Source of the DNA: Nitrospirota bacterium
GTDB lineage: Bacteria; Nitrospirota; CAKKRA01; 9FT-COMBO-42-15
Direction: 5' to 3'
NCBI GenBank assembly: GCA_016195585.1
Contig: JACPZJ010000178.1
Span: forward strand, 1-26,478
Length of the DNA: 26,478 nucleotides
Shown here: piece after piece, positions 7,468-8,375 of the stretch
Numbering within the stretch: position 1 is the first letter of the stretch
Layout of the letters: every line of letters begins with the position of its first letter
Notes under the pieces: generated by a model
Seen by the model: the letters and a program-made list of their open reading frames with translations, nothing else
The model's database searches: none
What the model was told of the DNA's origin: nothing
Position numbers and translations under genes: made by a program

Positions 7468-7992
7468 TCATTTTTCTTTTCTAAAAATTATATTAATTTC
7501 CTCGTGCCTTTCCTTTACTAAATGGCATGTAATGCAGGAGGTTTCAAAAATCCCTTTTCCAATCTTTAACTCTTCTGTAAGAGAGTCGTCCTCTCCCTCA
7601 TAAAGGAAATATTTGATTGCCTTAGGATATTTTTTTTCAAAGTCATACCACTGATTCTCAGGGGAATGATAATTGATGTTTTTAAATTTCTTCTCAATGA
7701 AGGCATAACGAATAAAGGCAACAACACTTTCTATCTCCTCATCCGTTAATATCTCGCGAAAGGACTCCATTGCTGTCCCTTGCCTTCCATTAAAAAAAAA
7801 AAAAAACATGCGGCGGTTATCAATCCCTTTCATCTCAGCAGGGTCTGTAAAATTTCTTGGCCTCGGGGCAAGGACATTAGCAGCGAGGGTCTTGCCATCT
7901 CCGGCATAGGCATGGCAAATGTAGCAGCGGAAATTATAAATCTCCCTGCCCTTAGCAATCTTAGGCTGGATTTGTGCAGAGGGAAATACTAT
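7468..7992 (-). pseudogene. Frameshifted C-terminal part (domains 2-3) of a multi-domain class I cytochrome c
   Basis: The frame of the 7468..7833 ORF stays open upstream to 8013. It reads IVFPSAQIQPKIAKGREIYNFRCYICHAYAGDGKTLAANVLAPRPRNFTDP..NGRQGTAM, a clear paralog of domain 1. It contains CYICH (7912-7926, missed by the ORF track) and CITCH. Confidence 0.8.
7792..7806 (-). repeat. T15 homopolymer in coding frame (FFFFF)
   Basis: 15 consecutive A on the plus strand, read on the minus strand as ATG TTT x5 AAT GGA. Confidence 0.95.
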
Positions 7993-8375
7993 TTTTTTTT
8001 CTCTGGCTTGGCATCAATCTTCATAAAGGCGGCGCGAATATAATCAACAATCAATTCAATCTCATCTTTTAAGAGCTGTGTCTTAAAGGGCTGCATGGCT
8101 GTTCCTTCACGGCCATTGGTTATGGATTGTATCATCCGCTTTCTTGTTAAGGTCTTGATTACCTTTGGGTCTGTAAAATTCTGCGGTTTTGGATTCAGGT
8201 CTTCAGAAACCCATGTCTTGCCATCACCTTTATCACCATGGCAAACAGCGCAGTTGGAATCATAAAGTTTCTCCCCCTTCTTAAGGGGGGTAAGCTCCTC
8301 TGCGTGGGATGGCAGCAGATTGATTGCTGTCAGCAATAAAAAAATAAATAAAAAAACCAGAAATCTTTTAAACAT
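7989..8375 (-). CDS. N-terminal class I cytochrome c domain with signal peptide, ending at an A9-TAG frameshift site
   Basis: KGEKLYDSNCAVCHGDKGDG..PKPQNFTD..GREGTAMQPF gives a His/Met monoheme domain. Ends GAG AAA AAA AAA TAG. Confidence 0.88.
   Translation of the reverse strand: MFKRFLVFLFIFLLLTAINLLPSHAEELTPLKKGEKLYDSNCAVCHGDKGDGKTWVSEDLNPKPQNFTDPKVIKTLTRKRMIQSITNGREGTAMQPFKTQLLKDEIELIVDYIRAAFMKIDAKPEKKK

Follow-up and report, generated by a model that had tools for sequence, protein, structure and literature searches.

The DNA analysed here (the window) is a stretch of 26,478 nucleotides corresponding to contig JACPZJ010000178.1 of assembly GCA_016195585.1, a fragmented MAG of a Nitrospirota bacterium (1.7 Mb, 242 contigs, 79% complete) whose related records are named “Nitrospiria bacterium” and come from Hainich groundwater. 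The minus strand of the window carries a split cytochrome gene, in which a first open reading frame (ORF1) is followed by a second one (ORF2) lying in the -1 frame (Table 1). A 9-bp hairpin stands directly after ORF2 and marks the end of the transcription unit; given this hairpin and the convergent Reg_prop ORF, which ends at position 7437 (ORF list), there is no room for a continued third domain. Synteny around the split gene is kept (window positions 8555-10692; loci L002, L003, L042, L044 and L046), with c7-type trihaem cytochrome genes (PF14522) found upstream and divergent in the loci whose upstream flank was recovered, and a convergent Reg_prop beta-propeller gene on the other side wherever the downstream sequence was obtained.

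Table 1. Features of the split cytochrome gene and its 3' flank, in coordinates of the window
Feature	Position	Strand	Basis or remark
ORF1, 128-aa exported monohaem class I cytochrome c	7989..8375	-	ORF list, translation, Pfam
Stretch within which the shift must occur	7990..8013	-	-1 frame reaches back 7 codons from ATA (7992..7990)
Slippery tract A9, in frame 0 read as three AAA (Lys) codons	8000..7992	-	sequence
Frame-0 stop TAG directly after A9	7991..7989	-	sequence
ORF2, 174 codons from ATA plus TGA, -1 frame	7468..7992	-	translation, Pfam
CYICH of the second complete class I domain, Met in NGRQGTAM	7926..7912	-	ORF2 translation
T15 tract, FFFFF inside ORF2	7792..7806	-	four same-population assemblies (L047-L050) read TTTTTTTCCATTAAG (FFSIK) over the same 15 bases
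CITCH, short third haem module plus 17-aa tail	7536..7522	-	ORF2 translation
Hairpin, 9-bp, AGGGCGAAC-AACC-GTTCGCCCT	7443..7464	.	read from sequence; between ORF2 and the convergent Reg_prop gene

The product of ORF1 can be assigned to the class I c-type cytochromes, given that it combines a CxxCH motif (CAVCH, at 8252..8238), a distal Met motif (with the Met ligand in NGREGTAM) and profile matches above the curated thresholds. In Pfam these matches scored 50.6 bits for PF13442 and 43.3 bits for PF00034, the respective cut-offs being 27 and 21.3 bits. A signal peptide is apparent at approximately residues 1-25 (MFKRFLVFLFIFLLLTAINLLPSHA), as a hydrophobic leader ending in SHA/EE that was read from the sequence, and the protein terminates in KPEKKK followed by the TAG codon. 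With the Pfam domain covering residues 31-113, the short product would comprise a signal peptide and a complete His/Met domain, in agreement with what a first-pass annotation of this DNA had proposed from its letters and reading frames. An outgroup locus (L051:254-1024) presents an ORF1-like monohaem gene alone, 52% identical to ORF1 and without ORF2, which indicates that the short product can stand by itself. The end of that gene, GAG AAA ACT AAG ACG TTT TGA, has no A run, and the same convergent Reg_prop gene comes directly after it. Comparison with this outgroup suggests that ORF2 is an add-on placed behind ORF1 in the recoding clade.

ORF2 encodes a second cytochrome c domain that was matched by the same two families with 48.8 and 49.8 bits (PF13442 and PF00034, respectively), and no full domain match was returned by Pfam over the third CxxCH. 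The description of the continued product as a “three-heme protein” in the first-pass annotation is therefore right as to the presence of three CxxCH motifs, but the last of them belongs to a short module rather than to a full domain. Haem is presumably bound at this third motif, CITCH, as well. Conserved parts of ORF2 include the region of NINYHSPENQWYDFEK and the motif NINYHSPENQW, which precedes the third haem module. From Nitrospiria to Gammaproteobacteria, ORF2 residues N104, Y107, H108 and N112 are invariant and W114 is nearly so (alignment A4; NINYHSPE at window positions 7666-7689). Judging from this alignment, the CITCH haem may have its distal ligand in the His of NINYH, which never varies. 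The AlphaFold2 model of ORF2, built with alignment A4, had a mean pLDDT of 59, with values below 50 in the third haem module, and its quality was insufficient for structural conclusions.

Outside this clade, the counterparts of ORF2 are trihaem proteins encoded by a single ORF, and it is their N-terminal two thirds with which ORF2 is colinear (46% identity over 147 aa). Such cytochromes were found in Gammaproteobacteria (Sedimenticola, L027 and L028; L033), with 39-49% identity to ORF2, and share with it the first-domain signature GREIYNFRCYxCH as well as the middle module NxxYHxxENGW...CIxCH. They differ from it in having a signal peptide of their own, a complete third domain and an unbroken frame, and in the lack of an A run at the corresponding place. 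In other words, the Nitrospiria ORF2 equals a trihaem protein minus its leader and its last domain, positioned behind another cytochrome gene in the -1 frame. Two unbroken three-domain proteins (P0026 and P0089) were considered as the ancestral form and rejected, because the specific relatives of ORF2 constitute a different trihaem family with its own leader. Among solved structures, the best match by sequence was a dihaem cytochrome of Kuenenia stuttgartiensis (PDB 6h5l, chain B; E value of 3.5e-11), which aligns to residues 32-215 of the read-through product and hence spans the break; its gene is unbroken, the similarity is low and the likeness is one of sequence only.

How ORF2 could be expressed is constrained by the features of its 5' end. 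In the window no ATG, GTG or TTG codon precedes CYICH, and a start codon before the first CxxCH is absent in 10 of the 13 loci described below (the window included), the exceptions being L003, L045 and L046, where a TTG or ATG is present. A hydrophobic leader was seen in none of the 13 loci (as read from the sequence), the domain being preceded instead by 13-15 polar or Pro-rich residues. The c-type cytochromes have their haem attached only after export. Since ORF2 is devoid of a signal peptide, it would be able to mature only as a continuation of ORF1. In public annotation ORF2 appears as a separate “cytochrome c” gene (L002:6001-6519 and L003:6001-6513) that starts at ATA, rendered as M, or at TTG, and other gene callers make it start at internal ATGs (100-161 aa). 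For the 121-aa product expected from an internal ATG of the window's ORF2, no exact match was found in the protein collection.

At the junction, the first-pass annotation had reported a frame 0 ending in GAG AAA AAA AAA TAG, a -1 frame open only from 8013 and, upon addition of one A, a protein of about 302 aa with three haem motifs. Sequence and translation bear out each of these statements. The -1 frame is closed until 8013 and from there remains open as far as the TGA at 7470..7468, so that it begins 7 codons ahead of the ATA. Eleven loci share this open stretch of 7 codons, which in L045 and L046 is reduced to 3. Read-through with one extra A yields 302 aa (...KPEKKK-IVFPSAQ...), with CAVCH, CYICH and CITCH in this order. 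As the two full cytochrome c domains delimited by Pfam occupy residues 31-113 and approximately 137-222, the break at residue 128/129 falls in the linker between them, where the earlier annotation had placed it. Transcripts with one A fewer would stop after 8-10 codons in 14 of 14 sequences (the 13 loci plus L047).

Orthologous loci were collected by whole-genome searches, collection scans and look-ups of ORF1 orthologues, which together provided 13 distinct loci (the window, L002, L005=L024, L003, L006=L025, L030, L031 and L041-L046) from at least nine samples or assemblies. Where named, the relatives are uncultured Nitrospirota or Nitrospiria, and they come from similar habitats, mostly groundwater; the number of independent lineages is perhaps 5-6, not 13. 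Whether homologues keep the broken frame, a check that the first-pass annotation had proposed, received a uniform answer, as all 13 loci display an A run, an immediate stop and then ORF2 in the -1 frame (170-174 codons). Twelve loci have an A9 run; in the remaining one it is an A10, extended on the 5' side with the frames unchanged, and the abutting stop is TAG in ten loci and TAA in three. Substitutions are numerous in the flanks of the run, and a 6-nt indel is present in the linker immediately after it. GAG-A9-TAG was also read in four of four contigs carrying the exact ORF1 protein (L047-L050), each being an independent assembly of the population to which the window belongs, from the sequencing runs SRR12113409, -10, -11 and -13.

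Protein searches gave a concordant picture. The best matches of the read-through protein were two proteins of 170-172 aa that correspond to the ORF2 part only (84-88% identity), every further match having 46% identity or less. On the contigs encoding these two proteins, ORF1 again stops at A9-TAG and ORF2 comes next in the -1 frame. A collection of 5.8 billion proteins yielded no fusion of about 300 aa above 46% identity, and a fused allele was found in none of the assemblies. A KKK C-terminus is present in 15 of the 16 other ORF1 homologues with at least 60% identity in the protein collection, the last entry being ORF1 itself.

The run alone would not be unusual in this genome, which contains 38 A/T runs of at least 9 nt; what exceeds chance is its conservation. 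Relative to a Markov-1 expectation, A/T runs are in excess up to 7 nt (1.48x) and depleted at lengths of at least 9 (0.48x) and at least 10 (0.24x), which is consistent with long A/T runs being costly here and with selection against slippage-prone runs, following the logic of PMC1088944. A genome-wide look at the A9-TAG motif produced two other such strings (in C128 and C131), one of them in ruvB, and both were discarded as junctions for they are read through in frame. At the split gene, every sequence uses AAA for all three Lys of the run. Elsewhere in these genes AAG makes up 61% of the Lys codons, and of 13 further Lys columns with full conservation just one consists entirely of AAA. The retention of AAA against this preference argues for maintenance of the run by selection at the nucleotide level. 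At the protein level, pairwise dN/dS of ORF2 versus its orthologues ranged from 0.09 to 0.25, with dS up to approximately 2, indicating that ORF2 is translated and constrained. For ORF1 the values were 0.07-0.25, and the constraint on ORF2 is at least equal.

Taken as a whole, the layout of the locus probably reflects programmed recoding, with transcriptional slippage on the A9 run as its most likely form. Under standard decoding the gene would give rise to the 128-aa exported monohaem cytochrome c, ending at the TAG after A9. In a fraction of the expression events one extra A would effectively be read, bringing the frame into ORF2. The most likely cause would be slipping of the RNA polymerase on the 9-nt T run of the template, generating A10 transcripts, and a possible second cause would be a -1 slip of the P-site tRNA-Lys on AAA with the stop codon waiting in the A site. 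By either route a 302-aa protein would be formed, in which the ORF1 signal peptide would carry the second domain and the third motif across the membrane, with haem being attached to the exported ORF2 part after this crossing. What we infer here is the occurrence of slippage, the step that slips and the ratio of the products. Bacterial RNA polymerase is known to slip efficiently on A or T runs of this length, 9 nt (PMC5009743, PMC1088944), and A9 cassettes produced about 40% frame change in E. coli (PMC3711429). Conserved 9A runs combined with a conserved two-ORF organisation have been used as the mark of purposeful slippage (PMC1088944), and the sequence-level features set out by Baranov et al. 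(2005, PMC1088944) are found here, namely a run of at least about 9 nt that is conserved without frame-restoring indels, and two ORFs of which the second is under selection.

Within recoding, a transcriptional slip is favoured over a translational one, as being about twice as probable. A purely ribosomal event would leave a faithful A9 mRNA and consist either of a -1 frameshift on A_AAA_AAA or of a P-site tRNA-Lys slip promoted by a slow stop codon in the A site, and the locus has several attributes that such an event calls for. The X_XXY_YYZ heptamer A_AAA_AAA is in phase with frame 0, the stop follows the run directly in 13 of 13 loci, and the sole tRNA-Lys found in the MAG has the anticodon UUU. 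The stop codon, however, would also be needed simply to end ORF1 cleanly. No conserved structure was found downstream of the run, single-sequence folds having z-scores from -0.58 to +0.26. The sole consensus helix, some 39 nt away, falls within conserved coding sequence and is unaccompanied by compensatory changes. The weak stem just downstream that the first-pass annotation had pointed out can indeed be drawn, but shuffled sequence folds just as stably (z-score of -0.40) and the stem is not conserved. Neither was a conserved GGAGG-like SD element found in the 30 nt upstream, where the sequences vary among loci (AAGCCAGAG, AAGGCAGAG, AAGACGAAG and others).

In E. coli dnaX, the -1 frameshift needs both an upstream SD-like element and a downstream stem-loop. 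The present junction is similar to that site, A_AAA_AAG, in having an A-rich Lys heptamer in phase and tRNA-Lys(UUU) (PMC5009743). It differs in that such stimulators are not conserved, neither as a downstream hairpin or pseudoknot nor as an upstream SD-like element, and in its heptamer, A_AAA_AAA, which is a known shift site (PMC3711429, PMC5009743) but in E. coli is far less prone to shifting than A_AAA_AAG (PMC5009743). Moreover, the full run of 9-10 nt is kept, although 7 nt would be enough for tandem tRNA slippage, and this favours slippage during transcription, as does the lack of conserved 3' structure and 5' SD-like element, which fits a slippage that needs the run alone. An exclusively ribosomal origin of the shift is on these grounds rather unlikely.

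A further reading is that ORF1 and ORF2 are two separate genes, the latter being translated by coupling or by re-initiation at a non-canonical start such as ATA. This is how public annotation treats ORF2, entered as a protein of its own with an ATA (P0001) or a TTG start (P0002), and in three loci a TTG or ATG does precede the haem motif. Nevertheless, this reading is hard to accept and has a low probability: an ORF2 made independently would in all loci be without a signal peptide and could not reach the haem-attachment machinery, ten of the 13 loci offer no ATG, GTG or TTG before the first CxxCH, the homologues of ORF2 elsewhere all have their own leader, and the retention of A9 against the AAG preference would be left unexplained.

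Contingency loci normally exhibit tract-length polymorphism between strains. A phase-variable gene, in which replication slippage would heritably switch the cell from the monohaem state (A9) to the fused one (A10 or A7) and back, was the second of two possibilities advanced by the first-pass annotation, next to the programmed expression of two products. A9 tracts are hypermutable in replication (PMC1088944, PMC3711429), and the protein is exported and belongs to a cell-envelope electron-transfer cluster. Yet the split state is present in all 13 loci and in the four assemblies of the same population, the single A10 run keeps the frames, and the 5.8 billion proteins searched include no fused form, which leaves phase variation with a low probability. 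The two-product alternative is the one that holds up, with the conserved A9-stop arrangement, the selection on ORF2, the missing signal peptide and, usually, the missing start codon in its favour. Lastly, a homopolymer error of sequencing or assembly, which the same annotation had rated as equally possible, or a recent inactivating mutation turning the gene into a pseudogene, has a negligible probability, for even if the MAG is fragmented and the T15 tract of this very gene is absent from independent assemblies, A9-TAG was recovered four times from separate assemblies of this population and again from 12 diverged loci, and ORF2 is under strong purifying selection instead of the relaxed selection, with intact relatives, that a pseudogene would show.

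The favoured reading, programmed slippage of the polymerase on A9, has precedents in other genes. In Thermus thermophilus, the tau and gamma products of dnaX arise via transcriptional slippage on a 9-nt A/T run (PMC5009743, PMC3711429). Like this gene and the two-ORF dnaX genes (A9/A10), the split cytochrome gene is chromosomal and non-mobile, has a conserved A run of 9-10 nt, needs no RNA structure, and would provide two proteins with a common N-terminal part from a single gene. In Thermus slippage leads to the shorter product, whereas here and in the two-ORF dnaX it would lead to the long one; the protein family is also unrelated, a periplasmic c-type cytochrome, and the fusion would in addition supply the downstream part with a signal peptide. 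Another parallel is provided by the OrfA/OrfAB arrangement of IS elements (9A runs) and by mxiE of Shigella flexneri, where the upstream ORF likewise ends at or near an A/T run (PMC1088944, PMC3711429), a downstream ORF devoid of a start lies in the frame that is reached with one additional nucleotide, and run and ORF layout are conserved without indels. The cytochrome gene departs from these cases in being neither a mobile element nor a regulator, in that its run abuts the stop exactly, and in the redox nature of its products. In the literature searched, no description was found of a bacterial c-type cytochrome with programmed slippage; accordingly, the mechanism is already known and the gene family is new for it.

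To our knowledge, only a handful of bacterial chromosomal genes outside mobile elements are known to undergo programmed slippage. If the proposed mechanism is true, a respiratory electron carrier joins them, and a conserved cytochrome cluster of groundwater Nitrospirota would supply a single carrier in two versions at a defined ratio. The proposed mechanism would also illustrate how domains can accrete, an out-of-frame fusion rescuing a module that no longer has its own signal peptide. A broader proposal, which we regard as speculative and somewhat doubtful, is that A9 slippage is a general bacterial way of attaching signal-less redox modules to an exported cytochrome, the add-on having been captured in this case from a trihaem gene without the leader and the last domain. 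Slippage of the polymerase would then fix the proportion of a monohaem shuttle that is free to a longer form that is tethered and has the same docking domain. With its two halves annotated as separate genes, a read-through product with three haem motifs would remain hidden in databases.

Two other peculiarities of the sequence were noted. The first is the T15 tract inside ORF2, at whose site the other orthologues read FLSIK, FYSIK, FNSIK or FDSIK; considering also the reading of the four same-population assemblies (Table 1), it probably represents an assembly artefact or else a minor variant, and neither belongs to the mechanism nor forms a second slippery site. The MAG contains a second run of exactly 15 A's, just after a gene stop (G000:C26:9887-9901). 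The Markov-1 model predicts about 2.6 runs of at least 12 nt for this genome, and the coincidence of two equally long tracts, of which one lacks support, hints at a quirk of the assembly.

The second peculiarity concerns the 3' end of ORF2 together with the hairpin (from about LTEELKIGKGIFETSCITCH to the stop), where the window (7468-7580) and L003 (6395-6513) are almost identical in nucleotides. Over the remaining ORF2 the same two loci have a pS of 0.45, and closer relatives (L002, L041 and L042) have a different ORF2 tail, LVKxxMGGAIFRKAM. Given this contrast, the shared 3' end of the window and L003 looks like a recombination tract.
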